64,000 nucleotides of DNA from Pseudomonadota bacterium (GCA_043806915.1 JAZDGM010000102.1:4476-68475); one strand, 5' to 3'; positions 6,132 to 15,436 are shown, counted from the first letter of the stretch. Notes: generated by a model not told the origin, from the letters alone. Translations and numbers: made by a program.

Positions 6132-6395
6132 GGTAGCTCCTTCGTCCCTGCTTATCTCGCCGGGAGGTGGTTCGGTTATGGGCGAGGCCCGACGAACTAA
6201 CTTATATGCAAGGGATAATAAGTGAAATGATGGGCAAAGGCAAGGCCGATCTCCCGTCGCCCCGCCTCTTTCCCGGGCGGCTTCGGGGCGGGAGGGGCGA
6301 CCTGGGCGGAGGTTGGGGGGGAGTCGTTTTTTGCCTTGGCGGTGATGTTTTTTCTTGACTGGCGGGGCCGCGGTTGGTAATGTCTGTATACATAT

Positions 6396-6496
6396 ATACC
6401 AACTGACACGGCCGCAAGCCATGTCGGTCATAACAACCAATGAACATGCCCTTCGGGCATTTTCATACCAACCGACATGACCGCGGGCCATGTCGG
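6396..6496. repeat. hairpin-rich intergenic repeat, family 1 (copy A, inverted relative to copy B at 39213..39382)
   Basis: The reverse complement reads CCGACATGGCCCGCGGTCATGTCGGTTGG-TATGAAAATGCCCGAAGGGCATGTTCATTGGTTGTTATGA-CCGACATGGCTTGCGGCCGTGTCAGTTGG. The 29-nt box differs by one base from 39353..39381. Each box is a stem-loop (CCGACATG..CATGTCGG; ATGCCC-GAAG-GGCAT). Confidence 0.8.
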
Positions 6497-6525: not shown

Positions 6526-7272
6526 ATGGACCCGCCCAAATCCATCCCTTTATACCGGAAAGTCGCGGAAACGGTTAAGCAGCGGATATTGAACAATCAG
6601 TACGCCGCCGGAGGCCTCATCCCGCCGGCCCGGGAGTTGGCGGATGAATTCGAGGTCAGCAATATCACCATCCGCAAGGCCATGGAGGTCCTGACCAGTG
6701 AGGGTTTCCTGGTTCCCCGCCAGGGATGGGGGACCATGGTCGCCGAAAACTCCAGGGACTTGCTGGAAATCAGGTTGACCGGGAATTTCAACGATTGGTT
6801 CGACTCGGCCTCGGGCCGGAGGCCGAAACTTACGGCCGACATTTTGGCTTGCGAAAAAATCAGGCCCCCGGAGCGGGTCCGGGTCCTCCTGGGTCTGCCG
6901 CCCGAGACGGAAGTCTGGCGGATGCTCCGCCTGCGGCGACTGGAAAAAACTCCGGTCTCGTTTTTTCGTAACTATTTTCCGTCCGGGTTGCGCGAGAACA
7001 TCGACCCCCGGGCCGTGGAGGAGCGGAGCTTCATCGAGGTCTTTCAGGAAACCAACAAGATTCGTTTCACTAGGCTGGTTCAGCGCGTGGAGGCGAGCAT
7101 GGCGGACCTGGACTTGGCCGACGTTCTTGGCGTCGAATTCGGAGCGCCCCTTTTTTTTATCGAGAATACCTATTTTGCCGCGGGCCCTCGTCCGGTGGTG
7201 GTCACTCACATGTTCTACCGGGGGGACCGCTATGTTTACAGAGCCGATTTTCCTTTAACATCAAGCGAGTGA
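6526..7272 (+). CDS. GntR/HutC-family transcriptional regulator (wHTH plus UTRA effector domain)
   Basis: ORF 6490..7272; the ATG at 6526 is preceded by GGAGG. N-terminal IPLYRKVAETVKQRILNNQYAAGGLIPPARELADEFEVSNITIRKAMEVLTSEGFL is a GntR HTH. The C-terminal half has UTRA-like features (..FFIENTYFAAGPRPVVVTHMFYRGDRYVY). Confidence 0.85.
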   Translation: MDPPKSIPLYRKVAETVKQRILNNQYAAGGLIPPARELADEFEVSNITIRKAMEVLTSEGFLVPRQGWGTMVAENSRDLLEIRLTGNFNDWFDSASGRRPKLTADILACEKIRPPERVRVLLGLPPETEVWRMLRLRRLEKTPVSFFRNYFPSGLRENIDPRAVEERSFIEVFQETNKIRFTRLVQRVEASMADLDLADVLGVEFGAPLFFIENTYFAAGPRPVVVTHMFYRGDRYVYRADFPLTSSE

Positions 7273-7325
7273 CGAGCGGGGCCCGGCAGCCCCGCGATCG
7301 TCCGCATACTTTCGGAGGCGACCCC

Positions 7326-8594
7326 ATGCCGCTTACAATCAGCCAGAAAATCCTGGCCGCCCACGCCGACGTCGATTCGGTGGAACCCGGTCAATTGATC
7401 GACGCCCGACTCGATTTTGTCTTCAGCAACGATATCACGGCGCCCCTGGCCATCAAGGTGTTCGAGGAGTGCGGGGCCGACCGCCTGTTCGATCCCGAGA
7501 GGGTGGCCTTGATTCCCGACCATTTCGTGCCCAACAAGGACATCAAGTCGGCCATGCAGGTCAAAATACTGCGTGATTTCGCCCGCAAGCATCACTGCCC
7601 CCATTTTTTCGAGGTCGGGCGCATGGGCATCGAGCACGTCATGCTGCCCGAGCTGGGCCTGGTGTTGCCCGGTGATCTGATCATCGGGGCCGACAGTCAC
7701 ACCTGCACTTACGGCGCCTTGGGCGCCTTCGCCACGGGCGTCGGGTCCACGGACCTGGGCGCGGCCATGGCCTCGGGCCGGGTTTGGCTGAAGGTCCCGG
7801 AATCGATCAAGTTCGTCTTCACCGGGGAAATGGGGCCGTGGCTGTCGGGCAAGGACCTGATTCTTTACACCATCGGCCGCATCGGCGTGGACGGCGCCCG
7901 GTACAAGGCCATGGAGTTCACCGGGCCGGTCATCGACGCCCTGCCCCTGAGCGGCCGGTTGACCATGAGCAACATGGCCATCGAAGCCGGGGCCAAGGTC
8001 GGGATCATCGCTCCGGACGAGACCACCCTGGCCTATGTAAAGGAGCGGGCCAGGCGGCCCTTCCAGGTCCAGGTCTCCGATGAAGGCGCCGCGTACGAGG
8101 CGGTCCACGTCTATGACGTCACCGGCATGGAGCCCCAGGCGGCTTGCCCCCATCTGCCGGAAAACGTCAGGCCCGTCAGCGAACTGAGGGACGTGGTCAT
8201 CGATCAGGCGGTCATCGGGTCCTGCACCAACGGCCGGATCGAGGACTTGAGGACGGCCGCCGAGATTCTGAAGGGGCGAAAAGTCGCTCCCGGGGTCCGC
8301 TGCATCATCATTCCCGGTTCCCAGGCCGTGTATAGGCAGGCCCTGGCCGAGGGATTGTTCGAAATTTTCACCGAGGCCGAGGCCGCCATCTCGACTCCGA
8401 CCTGCGGCCCCTGTCTCGGCGGTTACATGGGCATCCTGGCCGAGGGCGAACGAGCCATTTCCACCACCAACCGCAACTTTGTCGGCCGGATGGGCCATGT
8501 CAAGAGCGAGGTCTTTCTTTCGTCGCCCGCGGTCGCCGCGGCCAGCGCCGTGACCGGCGTCATCACCCATCCGCGGGATGTCGTCGGAAAGTGA
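7326..8594 (+). CDS. leuC: aconitase-family dehydratase large subunit, type-2 LeuC/HacA-like (3-isopropylmalate/homoaconitate dehydratase family)
   Basis: ORF 7269..8594; ATG 7326 follows GGAGG. MPLTISQKILAAHA.., GADSHTCTYGALGAF, IGSCTNGRIEDL and TPTCGPCLGG provide the Fe-S ligand cysteines typical of LeuC. Whether it is the housekeeping leuC or a paralogue is unresolved. Confidence 0.8.
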   Translation: MPLTISQKILAAHADVDSVEPGQLIDARLDFVFSNDITAPLAIKVFEECGADRLFDPERVALIPDHFVPNKDIKSAMQVKILRDFARKHHCPHFFEVGRMGIEHVMLPELGLVLPGDLIIGADSHTCTYGALGAFATGVGSTDLGAAMASGRVWLKVPESIKFVFTGEMGPWLSGKDLILYTIGRIGVDGARYKAMEFTGPVIDALPLSGRLTMSNMAIEAGAKVGIIAPDETTLAYVKERARRPFQVQVSDEGAAYEAVHVYDVTGMEPQAACPHLPENVRPVSELRDVVIDQAVIGSCTNGRIEDLRTAAEILKGRKVAPGVRCIIIPGSQAVYRQALAEGLFEIFTEAEAAISTPTCGPCLGGYMGILAEGERAISTTNRNFVGRMGHVKSEVFLSSPAVAAASAVTGVITHPRDVVGK

Positions 8595-8602
8595 GGAATA
8601 TC

Positions 8603-9103
8603 ATGACCATAACCGGAAAAATCTGGAAATTCGGAAACGACGTGGATACCGACGCCATCATCCCCGCTCGGTATCTCAATACGTCCGACGTCGATGAACT
8701 GGCCGCTCACTGCATGGAGGACGCGGACCCCGACTTTACCAAAAAAATCTCGGCCGGCGACATTATCGTGGCCGGGAAGAATTTCGGCTGCGGATCGTCT
8801 CGCGAGCACGCCCCCATCGCCATCAAGGGCGCCCGCATCGGCGCCGTCATCGCCGAGTCCTTCGCCCGTATTTTTTACCGGAACGCTTTCAACACGGGGC
8901 TTCTGATCCTGGAATGCCCGGAAGCGTCCGCCGATATTTCGGAAGGCGACGAGGTGTCCATAGACCTGAAAACCGGGACCATTACCAATCATACCAAAAC
9001 AAAAACCTACCAGGCCCAATCGACTCCTCCCTTCATGATGGAGTTGCTGGAAGCGGGGGGGCTGGTCCCCTATGTCCGCCGGCGGTTGGTCCAAGTCGGT
9101 TGA
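8603..9103 (+). CDS. leuD: aconitase-family dehydratase small subunit, LeuD/HacB-like
   Basis: ATG 8603 follows [59 protein letters not shown] is the LeuD swivel-domain signature. Tightly spaced after the large subunit. Confidence 0.85.
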
Positions 9104-9132
9104 CGGCCCGAGCGGCCAAGGAGGCTCTACTC

Positions 9133-10206
9133 ATGACGGAAAAAAAAATATATAGGATAGCGGTGCTGCCCGGCGACGGGACCGGCCCGGAAGTGATCCG
9201 GGAGGGCGTGAAAGCCCTCGCGGCCGCGGCCGACCGGGAAAACCTGGCCTTTGAACTCGACTACTTCGACCTCGGCGGCGAGCGGTACCTGAAAACCGGC
9301 GACATTCTGCCGGATGATGAATTTCAAAAATTGAAAACCTATTCGGCCATACTGCTGGGGGCTATCGGTCACCCGGACGTCAAACCCGGGATTCTGGAAA
9401 AGGGACTGCTCCTGGAACTTAGGTTCAAGCTGGACCAATACATCAACCTCCGGCCGGTGACCCTCTTCGAGGGGGCGGAAACCCCGTTGAAAAACAAGGG
9501 TCCCCGGGATATCGACTTCGTGGTGATCCGGGAGAACACCGAGGGCTTGTACACCGGGAGCGGCGGGTTCCTGAAAAAGGGGACCCCCCAGGAAGTCGCG
9601 ATTCAGGAATCCATCAACACCCGCTTCGGCGTGGAACGCTGCCTGCGCTACGCCTTCGATTATTGCCGCAACCGGAATAGAAGGAAAAAACTGACCCTGT
9701 GCGGCAAGACCAATGTCCTGACCTTCGCCTTCGACCTCTGGGAAAGGACCTTCCGCGAAGTGGCCCAGGAATATCCCGACGTGGAAACCGACTACGGTCA
9801 CGTGGACGCGGTCAGCATGTGGATGATCAAGAACCCGGAATGGTTCGACGTTATTGTCACGGACAACATGTTCGGGGACATCATCACGGATATCGGGGCC
9901 ATTATCCAGGGGGGGCTCGGGATCGCGGCCGGCGGCAATATCAACCCCCGGGGAGTGTCCATGTTCGAACCGATCGGCGGCTCGGCGCCCAAATACACGG
10001 GGTTGAACGTCATCAATCCCCTGGCCTGCATCGGGGCCGTGCAGATGATGTTGGAACATCTCGGCGAAAAAGCCGCGGCGGCCAGGGTGGAAGCGGCCAT
10101 TCGCAAGGTGGTGGCCCGGGACGTCACAAGCCTGGCCTCCGGGAAAATGGGATATACCACGCAACAGGTCGGCGATCTGGTGGCCGGGCATATCGCCTCG
10201 TCCTGA
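9133..10206 (+). CDS. isocitrate/isopropylmalate dehydrogenase-family oxidative decarboxylase (LeuB / tartrate-D-malate dehydrogenase-like)
   Basis: ATG 9133 follows AGGAGG. YRIAVLPGDGTGPEVIREG.., LDQYINLRPV, VVIRENTEGLYTG and NMFGDIITDIGA are family motifs. The N-terminal and loop regions look closer to TtuC/D-malate dehydrogenase than to classical LeuB (by eye). Confidence 0.8.
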   Translation: MTEKKIYRIAVLPGDGTGPEVIREGVKALAAAADRENLAFELDYFDLGGERYLKTGDILPDDEFQKLKTYSAILLGAIGHPDVKPGILEKGLLLELRFKLDQYINLRPVTLFEGAETPLKNKGPRDIDFVVIRENTEGLYTGSGGFLKKGTPQEVAIQESINTRFGVERCLRYAFDYCRNRNRRKKLTLCGKTNVLTFAFDLWERTFREVAQEYPDVETDYGHVDAVSMWMIKNPEWFDVIVTDNMFGDIITDIGAIIQGGLGIAAGGNINPRGVSMFEPIGGSAPKYTGLNVINPLACIGAVQMMLEHLGEKAAAARVEAAIRKVVARDVTSLASGKMGYTTQQVGDLVAGHIASS

Positions 10207-10264
10207 TTTTTTGAATGAACGGCCGTCCGGGGTCGTTCCCGGACGGCCCGAGGAAAGGCCCTTC

Positions 10265-11209
10265 ATGCCGGACCCTAAAAAAGTCTTCATCAGGGAAGTC
10301 GCCCCGCGCGACGGGTTTCAGTCCTGGCCGGATTTCGTGCCGACCGAAAAAAAGATCGAGGTCATCACGGCGATCATGGCGGCCGGGGTCGCGGAAATGG
10401 AAACCACGTCCTTTGTCAGCCCCAAGGCGATCCCCCAAATGAGGGACGCCGCGGAGGTCATGCGGGCGGTCCCCCGGTCGGGCTGCCGGCACGAGGCCCT
10501 CGTTCCCAACCTCCAGGGCGCCCGGATGGCCCTGGAAGCCGGGGCCCAAGGCCTGGTGGTGGTGATATCGGCCGGCGAGGCCCATAATCTGGCCAATATC
10601 CGCCGCACCATCGCCCAGTCTTTGGAAGACCTCCGGGCGATTTTCGATCTGGCCGCGGGCGGGAAAATTCCCGTGATCGGGGCCCTGGCCGTCTCCTTCG
10701 GCTGCCCCTTTCAGGGCGACATCTCCGAGGACGAGGTGTTCCGACTGGCCGACGCCTTCGCCGAGGGCGGCGCCGCCAGCGTCATCCTGGCGGACACCAC
10801 CGGCATGGCCACCCCGCCCCGGGTTGAAACGCTGGTGCGCCGCTTCATGGAACGCTTCCCCGGCCTGCCGTATTCCCTTCATTTCCACAATAACCGGGGC
10901 ACGGCCATGACCAATCTATACGCCGGGCTCAGGGCCGGCGCCGAGACCTTCGACGCCGCCCTGGGAGGCGTCGGCGGCTGCCCCAACGTCCCCCAGGCCG
11001 CCGGAAACCTCCCGACCGAGGACGTGGTCTATCTGCTGGAGGAACTGGGATACGACTCCGGCGTCGATCTTTTGAAAATTATCGAGGCCGCCCGGTTGTT
11101 GGAAAAAATCCTGGGGCGAACCCTACCCGGCCAGGTGATGAAAAGCGGCCCCAGAAATCCCGGGGCCGTCGCGCGGATTTGCGGAACAAACCATACCGCC
11201 CGCGACTGA
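10265..11209 (+). CDS. HMG-CoA lyase-like DRE-TIM metallolyase
   Basis: ATG 10265. EVAPRDGFQSW..ETTSFVSPKAIPQM..HFHNNRGTAMTNLYAGLRAGAETFDAALGGVGGCPNVPQAAGNLPTEDVVYLLEELG matches the HMGL/citramalyl-CoA-lyase type. There is no LeuA-type C-terminal regulatory domain. Confidence 0.8.
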   Translation: MPDPKKVFIREVAPRDGFQSWPDFVPTEKKIEVITAIMAAGVAEMETTSFVSPKAIPQMRDAAEVMRAVPRSGCRHEALVPNLQGARMALEAGAQGLVVVISAGEAHNLANIRRTIAQSLEDLRAIFDLAAGGKIPVIGALAVSFGCPFQGDISEDEVFRLADAFAEGGAASVILADTTGMATPPRVETLVRRFMERFPGLPYSLHFHNNRGTAMTNLYAGLRAGAETFDAALGGVGGCPNVPQAAGNLPTEDVVYLLEELGYDSGVDLLKIIEAARLLEKILGRTLPGQVMKSGPRNPGAVARICGTNHTARD

Positions 11210-11395
11210 CTGGCGGGGTCGGCCAGGGCCAGGGTGTTTTTGCAAAATTAATTGAAAATTAAGTAGTTGGCGCCAATACGGCCAATGGCGAAACACGGAT
11301 ATTCGGCCTTCAAAAGCCTGGCGGTTGGTCATATAAGGCTTGGCCGAAAATGACCTGAAGCAAGGACGGCAAAAATTTGCCCGCGGACATACTGA

Positions 11396-11455
11396 AGTAT
11401 TTCGATGAGTTAAAAATGAGTTTGACGACGAGTTGGGTCCAGGACCGAAGTTCTG
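11396..11455. repeat. conserved ~60-nt intergenic element, family 2 (copy A; partner at 55005..55062)
   Basis: AGTATTTCGATGAGTTAAAAATGAGTTTGACGACGAGTTGGGTCCAGGACCGAAGTTCT versus AGTATTTCGAGGAGTTAAAATTGAGCTGACGATGAGTTGGGGCAAGGACCGAAGTTTT. Same orientation, a handful of mismatches and one 1-nt indel. Both copies lie in AT-rich non-coding DNA. Confidence 0.75.
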
Positions 11456-11511
11456 CAATTGGCTAAATAGTCATAATTTTTTAAAAATATACTTAAACTG
11501 ATAAAAATTGC

Positions 11512-11544
11512 TTGACAAAAATAATGAGATTTGTCAATTTTTTT
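11512..11544 (+). terminator. AT-rich palindrome TTGACAAA-N10-TTTGTCAA followed by a T-run (terminator-like hairpin or operator)
   Basis: Perfect 8-bp inverted repeat at 11512..11519 and 11530..11537, followed by TTTTTTT. Lies in the 0.5-kb convergent spacer between the lyase-like gene and the CgeB-like gene. Confidence 0.4.
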
Positions 11545-11722
11545 ATCAAAGGCTTCTTGGGTGCGCGTGCCCGGTCTGAACGGCTAATCCCGCAATCAAT
11601 TTTGTTGGTCGGGTTTTGCGCCGCCAGTTCTTCACGGCGCCAGAGGAGGCCTTTTTTTTCGGTCGCTTCACCCAGCGAAAAACAGGACTACTTGGGCTTG
11701 ACGGCTCGCTGTTGGGTCCGCG

Positions 11723-13309
11723 TTAGCTTTTATTCTCGACAAAATCCAGCAGGACCTTCAGGCGATGCTGGTAAGTGTGTTCGGCCAGCACTCTTTTTCG
11801 GGCCGCCCGCCCCATTTCTTCCCGCAGTTCCGGTCGTTGCAGAAAAAAGGCGATTTTGTCCCTAAGTTCGGCGACGTTTTCGAAGGTGGACAATTCCTTT
11901 TCCGGCTCGAAGAATTGTTGCAGCGGGTGGCGTCGATCGACCAACTGGAAGGCCCCGCAGGCGGCGATTTCAAAAGTCCTGGGATTGATGAAGCCTCCCG
12001 CCGCGTCCAGTCCCGCGGTGAAAATGGAGGAGTGCAGGTTGAGGTTGATCCTTCCGGCGTTATAGATCAGCACGGTTTCCGCGGTTGAAACCCGGGCCCC
12101 GTTTTTCTGGACCCGGCGGCCGAGGTCTGATTCCAGGTCCCACTCCGTCCCCCAGATTTTAAAATCGAAATCGAGAAGTTCGGGAAAGACGGCCCTCCGG
12201 TTAGGGTACCCGGCGCCCATGAAGGAGAGGTCGGCGCGAAAGGGGGCCAGGAGTCTCTGGTCCGCGATGGGTTGAAAGACCTCGGGATCGGCCGCCAGGG
12301 GGAGGTTGAGAAAATTCTTCACGCCCAATTTTTTCAACTCCGCTTCCATTTCCGCGCCCTGGATATGAAAAAAGTAATCGTAGCCCCCGGCGAATTCGCG
12401 GTAATAGGTCAGGAATCGTCCGTCCTCGACAAACCAGAAGGCGCTGGGACACCCGAGGTTCCTGATTCTGGCCAGGGTGTGCGGGTCCAGGGGGGCCTGG
12501 GCCAGGGCCAGGACTAGGTCCGGTTTCTCCGTTTCGACCAAGAGGGTGAGATAATCGCTAATAAAATGGATCAATCGTTTAAAAGCGTCATTTTTTTTAT
12601 CCGTCGACGCCTCGAGACGGCGCAGGGTTTGATAAAAAGGGTCCAAGGCGGCGAGGTCCAGGTCGATCACGTGGTGTCCCATGAGATTGAGGGCCCTGAC
12701 CGTATGGCGGGCCACCGGCAGTGACCCTCCAAAAAACGGCCCCACCACAAGTATTTTCCTGGCTGAATCCGTTTTGAGGCGAGGGACGCTTCGTTCCTGG
12801 AGGAAGAGGTTTATTTTGGAGCAGAACCCCGGTTCCAGCCTTTCCGCGGGGCGATGAACGAGCAGGGTCGGGCCGATCGGGATGAGGGGGAAGTCATCCT
12901 GGTCGGTTATAAAAAAAACCCGGCATAGGATGTCTTGCCACTCGCCAAGGGAAAGGGCCAGTTTCAAGACCGCGAGACTGGGTTCCACCACGTGGATATT
13001 CCTGAATTTAGCGGCCAGGGCCCTGATGTGGTATCCGAGGCCGAGCCCGAAAACGACCACGTCTTGGTCTATTTCCCGGGCCTTTTCCACGGCCCGGGAG
13101 GCCGCGAACTTCTCGGCCTCGCCGAGGGGGTCATGGCGGGAATGCAGGCTGAGACCCTTTCTGACCAAGACCGGCCGGCCGGTTTTGGAAAGGACTAACT
13201 CCAGATCGGGCGCCGGAGGCGTGTTCTTCAGCTTTTCGACCAAGGCCGGATTCCGCTCGGCCAGTATTTTCAAATTAGCATCGAGCCGAATATCGGCTTC
13301 ATTTTTCAT
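11723..13309 (-). CDS. Maf-N-terminal-like module fused to a CgeB-like (DUF3880/Glyco_trans_1_2-type) glycosyltransferase
   Basis: N-terminus: ..SKTGRPVLVRKGLSLHSRHDPLGEAEKFAA..VVVFGLGLGYHIRAL, the pattern found in motility-accessory-factor flagellin glycosylation proteins. C-terminus: LSFMGAGYPNRR..LNLHSS..NPRTFEIAACGAFQLVD..FENVAELRDKIAFFL..R..MGRAARKRVLAEHTYQHR, as in CgeB-family GTs. Overlaps the upstream gene by 11 nt. Confidence 0.75.
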   Translation of the reverse strand: MKNEADIRLDANLKILAERNPALVEKLKNTPPAPDLELVLSKTGRPVLVRKGLSLHSRHDPLGEAEKFAASRAVEKAREIDQDVVVFGLGLGYHIRALAAKFRNIHVVEPSLAVLKLALSLGEWQDILCRVFFITDQDDFPLIPIGPTLLVHRPAERLEPGFCSKINLFLQERSVPRLKTDSARKILVVGPFFGGSLPVARHTVRALNLMGHHVIDLDLAALDPFYQTLRRLEASTDKKNDAFKRLIHFISDYLTLLVETEKPDLVLALAQAPLDPHTLARIRNLGCPSAFWFVEDGRFLTYYREFAGGYDYFFHIQGAEMEAELKKLGVKNFLNLPLAADPEVFQPIADQRLLAPFRADLSFMGAGYPNRRAVFPELLDFDFKIWGTEWDLESDLGRRVQKNGARVSTAETVLIYNAGRINLNLHSSIFTAGLDAAGGFINPRTFEIAACGAFQLVDRRHPLQQFFEPEKELSTFENVAELRDKIAFFLQRPELREEMGRAARKRVLAEHTYQHRLKVLLDFVENKS

Positions 13310-14558
13310 CGGGGTTTTCCTTTTTCAAAAACCGGTCGGCGATGGCGCCGTAGTAGCTTGGCGCGAGACGCAGGGCGGGCCGGAGGGGGAACGCCTGGAC
13401 GTCCCCGCCGGGCGCCAGGGTCTTGATTCTCATGACCGCCAGTCCCGGCGCCTGCCCCACGATTAAAAACAGCCTGGGGTCGTCCCAATGGTCGTCTAAA
13501 ACCTTTCCGGCCAAGGCGGCCTGGAAAAGGTCCGGGGCCGCTTCCACCACCACGACCCGCCCGGTGCGACCCGGGTGTTCCAGCAGGGCCTGGACGTGAT
13601 AGCCCAAGCCCAGGCCCAGGACCAGGACGTCCTTGTCCCGGGGAATGTCCGCCGCCCAGGCCCGGGCTTCCTCTCGCGGGTCCCGGGAACTGTGCAGGGT
13701 GACCAGCCGGCCTTCTTTATTGACTCGAAGCGTCGGAAACCCGGCGGCCGAGGGAAATATCCCCCAATTTTTTCCTTTCCCCGCGACCGGGGACGCCGGT
13801 TCGCGGCGTCTCCCCGGCCCGGGCCGGGAGCGGCCGGCGGCGTCTAGGACCCGGAGGACCGCTGCCCGGACGTCCGCGACTTTAATTTCCTTCATGCAAC
13901 GCAGGGAGCCGTCCTCGCACTTGCCGGTGTAACTTGGGATCGGTCGCCTGGCCTGGCAGCCCAGGCAGGGGACGTCGGCCGTTACCGGCTCGAAAAGGCC
14001 GTCGAACGGTTTTCTCCATTCCGGCCGGATGCACCCGAAAAGGGCCACGACCGGCTTGCGGCGGGCGGCGGCCAGGTGCATCAGGCCGGAGTCCAAGCCT
14101 ACAAAGACATCCAGGCGATTTATGACCGCCGCTAAGTCCCGGAGCGAAAGTCGATCGATCAGGTTATGCAGGTTCGGCCAGGGAGACGGGGCGAAATCCG
14201 GGGTCTTGCCTAAAACCAGGATATTGGCCCCCTTTTCGACGGCCAGTTCCCGGGCTAGGCGGTCCCAGTTGTACCAGTCCCAGGTCCTTTCCGGCCAGGT
14301 CGCTCCAGGGTGCAGACCGATGACCGGGCCGGGGCCGAGGTTGAGTTCCGCCAGGATGCGGCCGCCTCGGGCCTCTTCGTCGGGAGTCAACCAAAGCGCC
14401 GGAGTGAGCTGCCTTGGGGGCAGGCCGGCCGATTCCAGGTACCCGTCCAGGATGTGCCGGTCGGGTCGGAATTCGTAGAACAATCGGATTTTTCGGTCGT
14501 GGAGGTATTCCGGCGGCAGGTCGTTGACGCCGGTCAAATCGGGATGACCCGCCAGCAA
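13299..14558 (-). CDS. glycosyltransferase family 9 (heptosyltransferase-like) core plus C-terminal Maf-N-like module; it lacks its own N-terminus (downstream half of a frameshifted gene)
   Basis: GT9 motifs: GLHPGATWPERTW..ILVLG..LRDLAAVINRLDVFVGLDSGLMHLAAARRKPVVALFG. The tail VTLHSSRDPREEARAWA..VLVLGLGLGYHVQAL is paralogous to the N-terminus of the next gene. It only starts at a TTG, immediately after the G8 tract. Confidence 0.7.
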   Translation of the reverse strand: MLAGHPDLTGVNDLPPEYLHDRKIRLFYEFRPDRHILDGYLESAGLPPRQLTPALWLTPDEEARGGRILAELNLGPGPVIGLHPGATWPERTWDWYNWDRLARELAVEKGANILVLGKTPDFAPSPWPNLHNLIDRLSLRDLAAVINRLDVFVGLDSGLMHLAAARRKPVVALFGCIRPEWRKPFDGLFEPVTADVPCLGCQARRPIPSYTGKCEDGSLRCMKEIKVADVRAAVLRVLDAAGRSRPGPGRRREPASPVAGKGKNWGIFPSAAGFPTLRVNKEGRLVTLHSSRDPREEARAWAADIPRDKDVLVLGLGLGYHVQALLEHPGRTGRVVVVEAAPDLFQAALAGKVLDDHWDDPRLFLIVGQAPGLAVMRIKTLAPGGDVQAFPLRPALRLAPSYYGAIADRFLKKENPDEK

Positions 14559-15436
14559 CAGGTGGTGGGGGGGGAGGTCAAAAAATGGAGCCGCGCCGCC
14601 GGGTCCCGCTGCTTAAGCTCCCTGATGACCGGTTCGGCCCACAGAACGTCTCCCAGCATGCCCGGCCTGATCAGCAGGACGGTGCGGTCCCGTTTTTCAT
14701 GCGGCCGGTTCGTTCCCTTCCGCCTCAGGATCATGAGAAACCTGGGCAGGCCGCCGTAATATCCCACCCAGGCCGGTTCCAGGCCGATGCGTCCGGCCAG
14801 GGCCGCCAGGGCGTCGGGGTTGAAAAGAAATAAGGGCGGTTCGCCCGAAAAGGTCGAGCCCGCGTCGACGTCTTCGCGGTCCAGGGCTTCGAGACACACA
14901 ACGCCGTCCCGGGTCAGCAGCCTTTCCATGAGAGCCAGTATTTCCAGGGGGTTGGGATGGTATTCAATATCCCGGACCCAGGAAACGACGTCAAAACGTT
15001 CCCAATCCGCGGGCTGGGCCGGGGCAAGCCCGGGTGGAAGGTCCAATTGATGGGGCTTGTCGGCCAACAAGGAGGTAATTTGATCGGTCTCGAGGCCCCG
15101 GGGCGCGAAGCCGGCCTGGCGGGCTTCAAGGAGCATGGTTCCTGGCCCGGGGAAAATATCCAACCATTTCCCTTCCGATATGTACCTGGAAATTTCCCTG
15201 GCCCGGACGGCGGAAACCCTTGCTTCCAGGGCTGGATAGGACCCCGGCGGGTCGGCGGGGCTTGGAGGCCGGCAGGGCGCCGCGGGCCGCGGCGAAACCT
15301 GGACCAAGCCGCAGGAGGGGCAGGCGGACAGGCGGCCGGCGCCGGACGGGTCCTTTTCCAGGGCCGTTCCGCAACCAAGGCAGGTCCCCGGTCGCGGCCC
15401 CGGTCCCTTTCCGTTCGGGTGGGATGTTGGCGTCAT
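14534..15436 (-). CDS. Zn-ribbon plus class I SAM-dependent methyltransferase plus the first ~40 aa of a GT9 domain (upstream half of the frameshifted gene)
   Basis: ORF 14534..15559; ATG at 15436 (MTPTSHPNG..). CLGCG..CPSCG ribbon. WLDIFPGPGTMLLEARQAGF..FDVVSWVRDIEYHPNPLEILALMERLLTRDGVVCLE methyltransferase fold. Ends with VLLIRPGMLGDVLWAEPVIRELKQRDPAARLHFLTSPP, the canonical GT9 N-terminus. Confidence 0.7.
   Translation of the reverse strand: MTPTSHPNGKGPGPRPGTCLGCGTALEKDPSGAGRLSACPSCGLVQVSPRPAAPCRPPSPADPPGSYPALEARVSAVRAREISRYISEGKWLDIFPGPGTMLLEARQAGFAPRGLETDQITSLLADKPHQLDLPPGLAPAQPADWERFDVVSWVRDIEYHPNPLEILALMERLLTRDGVVCLEALDREDVDAGSTFSGEPPLFLFNPDALAALAGRIGLEPAWVGYYGGLPRFLMILRRKGTNRPHEKRDRTVLLIRPGMLGDVLWAEPVIRELKQRDPAARLHFLTSPPTTCCWRVIPI
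14567..14574. repeat. G8 homopolymer (C8 on the coding strand) at the frame break between the two halves of the GT9 gene
   Basis: The coding strand reads ..CAT TTT TTG ACC TCC CCC CCC ACC ACC TGT.. and reaches a stop at 14534. One extra C gives ..TSPPHHLLLAGHPDLTG.., which continues seamlessly into ORF 13299..14558. Confidence 0.95.

Follow-up and report, generated by a model that had tools for sequence, protein, structure and literature searches.

A Regulator-Led leuC-leuD-leuB Block with an HMG-CoA-Lyase-Type Gene as a Probable Trimmed Alkylmalate Cluster Serving Leucine Biosynthesis

Introduction

The middle steps of leucine biosynthesis are carried out by the 3-isopropylmalate isomerase (LeuC and LeuD) and the 3-isopropylmalate dehydrogenase (LeuB), the genes of which form a leuA-leuC-leuD-leuB(-asd) operon in relatives of the organism considered here. 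The subject of this work is a five-gene block of a Pseudomonadota bacterium (GCA_043806915.1), located at positions 6526-11209 of a 64,000-nucleotide stretch of DNA (JAZDGM010000102.1:4476-68475, referred to as the window). In this block leuC, leuD and a leuB-type dehydrogenase gene follow the gene of a GntR-family regulator and precede a lyase gene of the 3-hydroxy-3-methylglutaryl-CoA (HMG-CoA) lyase type (HMGL-type). An earlier reading of the sequence (the original prediction) regarded the block as a hydroxy-acid pathway rather than as part of leucine biosynthesis. The reading preferred here, with a probability of roughly 0.6, is that the block is a trimmed copy of an alkylmalate cluster, known from sulfate-reducer relatives, and that its LeuCD and dehydrogenase took over these middle steps for both leucine and isoleucine while the catabolic accessory genes were lost.

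The components of the block have counterparts in several described systems. Chloroflexus aurantiacus reportedly uses a succinyl-CoA:(R)-citramalate CoA-transferase together with an (R)-citramalyl-CoA lyase, in work attributed to Friedmann, Alber and Fuchs in 2007. The dimethylmaleate hydratase DmdAB of Eubacterium barkeri is of the LeuCD type and is paired with 2,3-dimethylmalate lyase, a member of the isocitrate lyase (ICL)/phosphoenolpyruvate (PEP) mutase family with activity on alkylmalates. The petal death protein of carnation, from the same family, is a lyase of 2-alkylmalates and oxaloacetate. HMG-CoA lyases of solved structure include human HMGCL (2CW6), YngG of B. subtilis (1YDO) and an Acinetobacter enzyme (6NDS), while HutC, PhnF, NagR/DasR and TreR share the domain architecture of the regulator. 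To our knowledge, control of leuCDB by a GntR protein of the HutC/UTRA subfamily has not been described. The annotation of each gene alone is routine, and a pathway reconstruction would mark leucine biosynthesis as complete; it is the genomic context that shows more.

Organization of the Five-Gene Block

The source genome (G000) is an assembly of 6.96 Mb rated 99.7% complete, and the window lies on its contig C102. The list of open reading frames (ORFs) and their translations place all five genes on the + strand within 6526-11209, separated by intergenic gaps of 53, 8, 29 and 58 nt. In gene order, the Pfam matches are GntR with UTRA, Aconitase, Aconitase_C, Iso_dh and HMGL-like. Ribosome-binding sites accompany the start codons of gntR (6526), leuC (7326), leuD (8603), the dehydrogenase gene (9133) and the lyase gene (10265). 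The co-orientation and tight spacing that had been predicted are thus borne out by ORF calls, Pfam matches and gaps of 8-58 nt. A scan for terminator-like sites on the coding strand gave none between the genes of the block, the only plus-strand site (6938-6957) lying inside gntR. The block is flanked on one side by a divergent gene for a histidine kinase of ~2000 residues and on the other by convergent glycosyltransferase genes of the flagellin-glycosylation type.

The first gene, gntR (6526-7272, + strand), encodes a protein of 248 amino acids of the HutC subfamily and has a GGGAGG ribosome-binding site before its ATG. Both the winged helix-turn-helix GntR domain (PF00392, 58.9 bits) and the C-terminal UTRA domain (PF07702, 96 bits) were matched, in agreement with the type of regulator first proposed. 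None of the models reaches its cut-off with this protein, the best giving 106 bits against 275. The large and small subunits of a type-2 3-isopropylmalate isomerase are encoded by leuC (7326-8594, + strand) and leuD (8603-9103, + strand; alternative GTG start at 8591). The dehydrogenase gene (9133-10206, + strand) encodes 357 amino acids of the Mycobacterium/PRK03437 type of LeuB. The last gene (10265-11209, + strand) encodes a DRE-TIM lyase of the HMG-CoA lyase family with 314 amino acids, in which PF00682 is the sole domain, so that the predicted absence of a LeuA-type regulatory domain holds. It was also agreed that neither a CoA ligase nor a CoA-transferase is encoded within the block. Most likely, the block is a real, regulator-led operon, the individual parts of which are ordinary while their combination is uncommon and, it appears, undescribed.

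Family and Specificity of LeuC, LeuD and the Dehydrogenase

LeuC scores 670.1 bits against the 3-isopropylmalate dehydratase equivalog TIGR02083 and passes its cut-off of 610.65. LeuD passes the LeuD/DmdB subfamily model TIGR02087 (215 bits, cut-off 109) and just misses the equivalog TIGR02084, and the assignment of the pair as a type-2 isopropylmalate isomerase was retained. The dehydrogenase passes the 3-isopropylmalate dehydrogenase model NF002898 (533 bits, cut-off 393) and falls below both tartrate dehydrogenase cut-offs (361 against 470 for TIGR02089, and 316 against 501 for the other model). Its closest solved structure is the LeuB of M. tuberculosis (1W0D, 336 bits), with the tartrate dehydrogenase of P. 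putida (3FLK) at 279 bits. The likeness to tartrate and D-malate dehydrogenases that had been suggested thus gives way to a closer one with Mycobacterium-type LeuB.

The substrate loops point in the same direction. The loop of the dehydrogenase, GILEKGLLLELRF, is common to the LeuBs of leu operons and unlike that of the TtuC/tartrate dehydrogenase group. The LeuD loop matches the LeuD of leuACDB operons and is unlike that of a paralogue in the same genome, LeuD2 (IVSGKHLD-AP). Such unchanged loops fit enzymes that would still use isopropylmalate and methylmalate. As the proteins of the related clusters described below have the same loops as the operon proteins, the cluster substrates are suggested to resemble isopropylmalate and methylmalate in their chemistry.

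Sole Copies and the Missing Canonical leuCDB

The Iso_dh family (PF00180) is represented in G000 by two genes, namely that of the window dehydrogenase and that of an NADP-isocitrate dehydrogenase, whose neighbours are 2-oxoglutarate oxidoreductase-like genes. There are four aconitase-family loci: AcnA, a PRK07229-type aconitase, the window LeuCD and a second pair, LeuC2D2, on contig C150. The latter proteins share 43% and 40% identity with their window counterparts and fail both cut-offs (441 against 611 and 148 against 246). The leuA gene is located on contig C147, where it scores above its cut-off (770 bits) and adjoins asd, while the citramalate synthase gene cimA is located on contig C192, also above its cut-off (756 bits), and adjoins aspartate kinase. 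A search for a separate leuABCD set therefore gave a divided answer: leuA and cimA are found elsewhere in the genome, but a second leucine-type leuCDB is not. The window genes are the only plausible partners for LeuA and CimA in G000. The exclusion of leucine biosynthesis in the original prediction cannot be upheld, as this block holds the sole LeuB-type gene and the sole LeuCD genes of leucine type in a nearly complete genome, and the encoded proteins have leucine-type loops.

In five genomes of the same family or order (G001, G004, G006, G008 and G010), the genes form a leuA-leuC-leuD-leuB-asd array, the products of which are 65-72% (LeuC), 53-61% (LeuD) and 70-72% (LeuB) identical to the window proteins. 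In G000, leuA is followed after 117 nt by asd and then by x447, the gene that also comes next in G001 and G004. The same leuA-asd-x447 junction is present in another genome, G002. Since the relatives carry leuCDB between leuA and asd and G000 joins these two genes directly, the canonical leuCDB is missing there. This is direct sequence evidence and not an assembly gap.

LeuC2D2 was considered as the true leucine isomerase and was ruled out by its scores far below the cut-offs, its divergent LeuD loop and its own conserved cluster. In that cluster (C150:32663-37886; L001:2664-7887), the pair is accompanied by a metallo-beta-lactamase (MBL)-fold protein, a PrpB/petal-death-protein-like lyase and an ene-reductase of the OYE family, and the same five genes stand together in G002 (L105). 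The set could be a pathway for dimethylmaleate or another alkylmaleate. A further arrangement is that of G001, which belongs to the same family and is represented by a closed genome. It has the canonical leuACDB-asd and a separate leuB (TIGR00169 type)-leuC-leuD beside genes of a tripartite ATP-independent periplasmic (TRAP) transporter (L100; G001:C1:3184000-3197000). Transporter-linked leuCDB copies can thus coexist with a biosynthetic set.

The Full Cluster in Related Genomes

A search with the lyase yielded 80 genome loci, to which a metagenomic locus (L107) was added, and all 81 were screened with the window proteins and the neighbours of the G002 genes. The lyase is >=55% identical in 46 of these loci, L107 included, many of which lie on truncated contigs. 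All but one of the 46 are labelled Desulfobacterota, 'Deltaproteobacteria' or bare 'Proteobacteria', the remaining one being an 'uncultured bacterium'. Within this group, a family III CoA-transferase was found in 23 loci, a TRAP system in 22 and a GntR gene in 20, and LeuC, LeuD or the dehydrogenase is encoded <=8 kb from the lyase in 20. The CoA-transferase adjacent to the lyase, which is present in L107, is not in the window. An ICL-family lyase resembling the petal death protein also recurs in the Desulfobacterota loci of the cluster.

The order of the genes varies. Three loci (L016, L019 and L024) have gntR-leuC-leuD-dehydrogenase-lyase-CoA-transferase-dctPQM, two (L014 and L022) have gntR-lyase-CoA-transferase-(ICL)-dctMPQ-leuC-leuD, and in L048 and L053 the order is leuC-leuD-dehydrogenase-lyase with a divergent gntR. 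The survey of gene neighbourhoods that had been proposed therefore supports a tie between LeuCD/LeuB-like genes, GntR and the HMGL-type lyase, which recurs in several orders and with a shared operator. In the 35 loci with a lyase <55% identical, mostly from Alpha- and Betaproteobacteria, the CoA-transferase occurs in 26 and LeuCD in one. Plasmids of Paracoccus and Nitratireductor carry only the lyase, the CoA-transferase and a regulator, to which Nitratireductor adds a tricarboxylate-type transporter.

In an even phylum sample, an orthologue of the lyase (E <= 1e-95) was found in 9 of 400 genomes, five of them in one family, so the cluster is patchy in its distribution. A full-length leuA-type gene is present in 14 of the 15 cluster-bearing genomes that were searched, most with a cimA-like gene beside it; the remaining one is a Syntrophus metagenome-assembled genome (MAG), G046. 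The ICL-like protein of the cluster is closest to the petal death protein (1ZLP, 234 bits), with further matches to 2,3-dimethylmalate lyase (3FA3, 185 bits) and methylisocitrate lyases. The CoA-transferase is nearest to formyl-CoA transferase (296 bits), YfdE and the human succinate-hydroxymethylglutarate CoA-transferase (9BR6, 277 bits). The TRAP binding proteins gave distant matches only among solved structures, from which no ligand can be inferred. A search of the literature found no publication describing the cluster.

In G002, an organic-acid region of ~25 kb (L006, L106; G002:C2:48000-76000) contains the order TRAP-ICL-TRAP-gntR-dehydrogenase. Also encoded there are an IclR regulator, accompanied by a short homocitrate-synthase-like enzyme and DctP, and two leuD-leuC pairs that stand in tandem and are of a distant type.

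The Closest Relative and the Trimming of the Cluster

L107 is located on a metagenome contig of 227 kb, and its lyase is 78% identical to that of the window (protein search). Its genes begin with a histidine kinase, Fer4, dctM, PEP-mutase/ICL, dctP, dctQ, gntR, leuC, leuD, Iso_dh and HMGL-like, and continue with CoA_transf_3, dctP, dctQ, dctM, a methyltransferase and Fer4, after which come the two glycosyltransferase genes that are also present in the window. In a blastn comparison, window 6527-11163 corresponds to L107 6252-10899 in a single stretch of 76.7% identity, and the syntenic downstream flank corresponds at window 11477-14671 to L107 17649-20863. Two segments of L107 are thus absent from the window: 3.8 kb upstream, with TRAP genes and the gene of the ICL-like lyase, and 6.7 kb downstream, with genes for the CoA-transferase, TRAP components, the methyltransferase and Fer4.

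More distant members of the clade (L016, L017 and L019) share the order of L107, which makes loss in G000 the simpler reading. No remnants of the CoA-transferase, TRAP or ICL genes were found in the two spacers by tblastn with E up to 10. Elsewhere in G000 there is no orthologue of the cluster TRAP genes or of the cluster CoA-transferase (best match 34%); further family III CoA-transferases are present as four paralogues of 29-34% identity, and TRAP systems are numerous. The one ICL-like gene of the genome (49% identical) is that of the C150 cluster. That the block has no CoA-transferase, a point noted in the original prediction, is accounted for by loss of the gene in this lineage.

The leuC and leuD genes of L107 (7028-8829) are broken by three frameshifts beside T homopolymers, with pieces 67-92% identical to the window proteins. 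These frameshifts are probably assembly errors, with real decay as the less likely cause.

The downstream junction at 11210-11476 is the site at which L107 carries the 6.7-kb CoA-transferase-dctPQM-methyltransferase-Fer4 segment. The A+T-rich spacer of the window at 11210-11722 is partly this junction and aligns with the glycosyltransferase flank of L107 from 11477.

Phylogeny

A maximum likelihood tree of 31 dehydrogenases places the Mycobacterium-type LeuBs in one group (100/100) with three subclades: the leu-operon proteins (98/99), cluster clade A (99/99) and cluster clade B (96/92). The window dehydrogenase falls in clade B, apart from the operon clade of its same-family relatives. The LeuC tree gives the same three groups, with the window protein in clade B (SH-aLRT 99), which is sister to the leu-operon LeuC of the relatives (operon clade 99). 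In the lyase tree, the window protein pairs with that of L107, and G002 comes next. LeuC and the dehydrogenase thus group with cluster-borne copies, the dehydrogenase within the Mycobacterium-type LeuB group.

The second dehydrogenases of the cluster-bearing MAGs, which are 43-46% identical, form a single clade (100/99). They were considered as the 'real' LeuB of these MAGs and rejected: two that were scanned are tartrate dehydrogenase equivalogs, and the rest belong to the same clade. In the MAGs G041, G044 and G045, the cluster LeuC is the only LeuC found. By their branching and distribution, the cluster genes are close paralogues of the leucine genes, standing beside them in some genomes and replacing them in others.

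Promoter, Operator and Leader

A sigma-70-type promoter can be read from the sequence at 6355-6383 (+ strand), with a -35 box TTGACT (6355-6360), a spacer of 17 nt and a -10 box TAATGT (6378-6383). It is followed at 6385-6400 by a putative operator of the GntR/HutC type, composed of TGTATACATATATAC (6385-6399) and then C, with the core GTATA-N6-TATAC. This motif occurs once in the 64-kb window (0.01 expected), and this is its only exact match in the 6.96-Mb genome, with none for the reversed control. The counterpart in L107 is TTGACT-17-TATTGT followed by TGTATACAGATATAC, located upstream of dctM. As the homologous promoter precedes dctM in L107, the same promoter now abuts gntR in the window.

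At least 15 related loci carry the motif, with 0-2 mismatches, directly in front of gntR, dctM, leuC or the gene for the lyase or the dehydrogenase. Across 592 kb of such loci, sites with at most one mismatch are almost confined to the immediate upstream regions of cluster genes; they precede gntR (six loci), dctM (two loci) and the lyase gene of an unlinked lyase-CoA-transferase locus in G002. Sites with two mismatches are found in clade A loci, in front of leuC or of the dehydrogenase gene. The window regulator is 74% identical to that of L107 and 52% to the G002 regulator that stands beside the orthologous dehydrogenase. This regulon-type distribution of a predicted operator suggests that GntR controls LeuCD and the dehydrogenase, the lyase and CoA-transferase, and the transporters jointly.

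If the only leuCDB genes lie under this repressor, its inducer should be present in normal growth, a role that an alkylmalate produced by LeuA or CimA could fill. Leu3p of yeast, which is reportedly controlled by alpha-isopropylmalate, offers a likeness.

Between the operator and gntR there is a leader with two 32-nt direct repeats (6396-6496, + strand), located at 6396-6427 and 6465-6496 and 84% identical. Each repeat begins with ATACCAAC; the second has a perfect GACATG/CATGTC inverted repeat, which is imperfect in the first. The repeats occupy the position of dctM-ICL-dctP-dctQ in L107. An Rfam scan gave no T-box, leader or riboswitch at the block or at the leuA locus. Another element is a stem-loop in the gap between the dehydrogenase and lyase genes (10220-10249, + strand), with a G+C stem of 12 bp and no U tract, just before the ribosome-binding site of the lyase gene. 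Its folding energy is -31.4 kcal/mol (z = -2.7), and it is not terminator-like. At the corresponding place in L107 (9957-9983) there is also a stem-loop, the sequence of which differs. The stem-loop of the window may set different expression of leuCDB and the lyase.

The HMGL-Type Lyase

The lyase passes the HMG-CoA lyase subfamily model NF004283 (284 bits, cut-off 246) and gives weak matches to the models of LeuA, CimA and homocitrate synthase. Its best relatives of solved structure are HMG-CoA lyases, 6NDS (258 bits, full length) and 1YDO, with human and bacterial types among the matches. The motifs are intact, namely PRDG at residue 14, E.TS at 46, DTTG at 177, HFHN at 206 and GGCP at 237. 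It is the sole HMGL-type lyase in G000. From these sequences, a specificity for HMG-CoA cannot be separated from one for citramalyl-CoA.

The ratio of nonsynonymous to synonymous change (dN/dS) between the lyase and that of L107 is ~0.06, a rough sign of constraint given that synonymous sites are saturated (pS 0.6-0.8). In a three-point relative rate comparison with G002 as the outgroup, the window-to-L107 branch ratio of the lyase is 0.69-0.75, the same as for GntR and the dehydrogenase. In the maximum likelihood lyase tree, however, the window branch is somewhat longer (0.22 against 0.14), so that a slight speeding-up of the lyase is possible. Retention of the lyase could reflect a recent loss of its partners, the use of another CoA-transferase, or a genuine role as HMG-CoA lyase.

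A BLAST screen for liu/mcc or HMG-CoA synthase genes as neighbours of the lyase was negative in the window and in the 81 related loci. For a leucine-catabolic cluster, six carboxyltransferase genes were found in G000, and neither of the two loci examined is of the methylcrotonyl-CoA carboxylase type. In Desulfatirhabdium butyrativorans (L108; AUCU01000016.1), an orthologue of the lyase (67% identical) follows a heparinase II/III-like gene, with no CoA-transferase, LeuCD or GntR nearby.

Proposed Mechanism and Alternatives

The larger cluster of some Desulfobacterota, of which the block is proposed to be a trimmed copy, has the order dctM-ICL/petal-death-protein-like lyase-dctP-dctQ-gntR-leuC-leuD-leuB-type dehydrogenase-HMGL-type lyase-family III CoA-transferase-dctPQM. 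In its full form it would take up 2- or 3-alkylmalates or alkylmaleates of the citramalate, citraconate and isopropylmalate kind. By one route, LeuCD and the dehydrogenase would convert alkylmalates to a 2-oxoacid. By a second route, the CoA-transferase and the lyase would form acetyl-CoA and a 2-oxoacid, as in the conversion of citramalate through citramalyl-CoA to acetyl-CoA and pyruvate. All parts of the cluster could act on one pool of 2- and 3-alkylmalates and alkylmaleates, and for this reason the favoured function is to import and cleave acids of the citramalate, citraconate or isopropylmalate type, the nature of the substrate being inferred from gene content and protein families. HMG is the main alternative substrate of the CoA-transferase and lyase pair.

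In the lineage of G000, the canonical leuC-leuD-leuB have disappeared from their place between leuA and asd, leaving the cluster paralogues as the only isopropylmalate isomerase and dehydrogenase. These would act together with LeuA in the formation of leucine and with CimA in that of isoleucine. With the transporters, the ICL-like lyase and the CoA-transferase lost, the uptake-and-cleavage route is probably incomplete. The five genes are probably transcribed from one promoter and repressed by their own HutC-type GntR at the predicted TGTATA-N4-TATAC operator. An alkylmalate is a plausible inducer, in which case leuCDB would be induced in a feed-forward manner.

Several points weigh against this scheme. 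LeuD reaches 234.6 bits against the TIGR02084 equivalog, 11 bits short of its cut-off of 245.85. The -10 box TAATGT is weak, and a consensus promoter scan did not list the site. A strong stem-loop separates the dehydrogenase and lyase genes. Both the co-transcription of the five genes and their repression by GntR are deduced from gene spacing and motifs. The lyase is intact and constrained in a genome without its partner CoA-transferase, which trimming alone does not explain. For the CoA-transferase and lyase pair, 3-hydroxy-3-methylglutarate is as good a fit as citramalate. The status of the cluster genes as sole leuCD in other MAGs is taken from assemblies without stated completeness, and the leucine prototrophy of the organism is an assumption.

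A broader version of the scheme is possible, with a probability well below even. Here the cluster would constitute an undescribed GntR-controlled alkylmalate regulon of some Desulfobacterota, from which this genome shed the catabolic parts. LeuCD and LeuB would do double duty in it: they would act in leucine and isoleucine biosynthesis and also, with a TRAP importer, the family III CoA-transferase, an HMGL-type alkylmalyl-CoA lyase and the petal-death-protein-like lyase, in the breakdown of external acids of the citramalate, citraconate or isopropylmalate type. The CoA-transferase and lyase would then be a thioester-conserving, reversible counterpart of LeuA and CimA. The regulator would sense an alkylmalate and thereby also induce leuCDB in a feed-forward manner, and the cluster copy would have displaced the canonical leuCDB before the catabolic genes were shed.

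It is rather unlikely that the lyase is a true HMG-CoA lyase, acting in leucine/isovalerate or HMG breakdown and retained as the one enzyme of its kind in the genome, with a link to leuCDB that is only regulatory or historical. Such a role agrees with the NF004283 match, with the nearest structures, with its position as the sole HMGL-type lyase of the genome, and with the resemblance of the relatives' partner CoA-transferase to the human succinate-hydroxymethylglutarate enzyme. However, no liu/mcc-type genes are nearby, and the two of six carboxyltransferase loci that were examined are not mcc-type. Furthermore, HMG is chemically unconnected with LeuCD, LeuB and the petal-death-protein-like lyase, yet their genes co-occur with that of the lyase and share an operator.

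Two further explanations are somewhat less probable still. One is that the block is an ordinary leuCDB operon, with GntR and the lyase merely unrelated neighbours. The genes are indeed the only leuCDB-type genes in G000, LeuC and the dehydrogenase exceed their equivalog cut-offs, and the loops are of the operon type. However, GntR, the lyase, the CoA-transferase and TRAP genes accompany the LeuCD and dehydrogenase orthologues in many loci and in varied orders; a shared operator precedes regulator, dehydrogenase, leuC, lyase and transporter genes; and the window proteins branch with cluster copies and not with the operon copies of same-family relatives. The short gaps and the absence of a coding-strand terminator-like site between the genes in the scan also speak against separate units. 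Of the outcome that had been named as refuting the original prediction, the sole, leucine-type copies are thus found, but GntR and the lyase are not unrelated neighbours, as they are associated across loci.

The other is an active catabolic route in G000 for a substituted malate or citramalate-like acid, with uptake and CoA activation encoded elsewhere. The intact and constrained lyase, the retained GntR/UTRA regulator with its putative operator, and the other CoA-transferase paralogues and TRAP systems of the genome would all allow it. The CoA-transferase, both TRAP systems and the ICL-like lyase of L107 are missing, however, with no orthologue elsewhere in G000. The product of the dehydrogenase, a 2-oxoacid, is moreover no substrate for an HMGL-type thioester lyase, which makes a linear order chemically unlikely. 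Overall, the original prediction is about half right: the tie of the LeuCD/LeuB-like genes to the regulator and lyase is supported, the exclusion of leucine biosynthesis is not.

Finally, the idea that the HMGL-like enzyme and a CoA-transferase replace LeuA/CimA as a thioester-conserving condensing step of 2-oxoacid elongation, suggested by the LeuA-like fold and metal chemistry, the position beside leuCDB and an energy saving possible in principle for energy-limited anaerobes, is very improbable. The original prediction had raised the replacement of the synthase by an HMGL-like enzyme, which finds no favour here, since nearly all of the cluster-bearing genomes searched keep a full-length leuA-type gene (14/15) and most a cimA-like one, the required CoA-transferase is missing in G000, and TRAP uptake with a HutC-type regulator better fits the use of an external acid.

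Significance and Comparison with Known Systems

In G000, the block most likely works as a leucine/isoleucine isomerase-dehydrogenase operon with a catabolic-type regulator and a leftover lyase. It should not be read as a working novel pathway, as the transport and activation genes are gone, and the full clusters of the relatives are the better objects for pathway discovery. The block suggests that housekeeping leucine genes can be replaced by paralogues from an organic-acid cluster and then come under a catabolic-type repressor. More generally, a conserved and apparently undescribed gene set of anaerobes joins LeuCD and LeuB to a CoA-transferase and an HMGL-type lyase, and the full cluster is a candidate for the anaerobic use of citramalate/citraconate-type acids. 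The predicted operator provides a direct handle toward the inducer. Should the broader regulon reading be true, this genome would represent a natural experiment in displacement followed by shedding.

Of the known systems, the leuA-leuC-leuD-leuB(-asd) operon of the relatives is the one with which the block shares its enzyme subtypes (TIGR02083, TIGR02087/TIGR02084 and PRK03437-type), near-identical loops and an inferred role. Unlike the canonical operon, the window genes have no adjacent leuA, are led by a HutC-type GntR gene and followed by an HMGL-type lyase gene, and belong to a separate clade.

The Chloroflexus pair is matched in the full cluster of the relatives and in the proteobacterial modules, all of which combine an HMGL-family lyase with a family III CoA-transferase. 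The Chloroflexus system is not known to include a link to LeuCD/LeuB, TRAP transporters, a GntR or an ICL-family lyase, and the window lacks the CoA-transferase. With the HMG-CoA lyases of human, B. subtilis and Acinetobacter, the window lyase aligns over its full length with conserved motifs, but it differs from them in having no liu/mcc neighbours and in its partners, which are enzymes of the leucine-biosynthetic type.

The pairing of DmdAB with 2,3-dimethylmalate lyase in Eubacterium barkeri is paralleled in the full cluster, where a LeuCD-type hydratase likewise stands with an ICL/PEP-mutase-family lyase. The window differs in the absence of an ICL-like gene and in its leucine-type LeuD loop, and LeuC2D2 on C150 is more DmdAB-like in context. 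As for the regulator, the likeness to HutC, PhnF, NagR/DasR and TreR may extend beyond their common architecture, in that the window has a short, A+T-rich palindromic putative operator that overlaps the promoter of the regulator's own operon.

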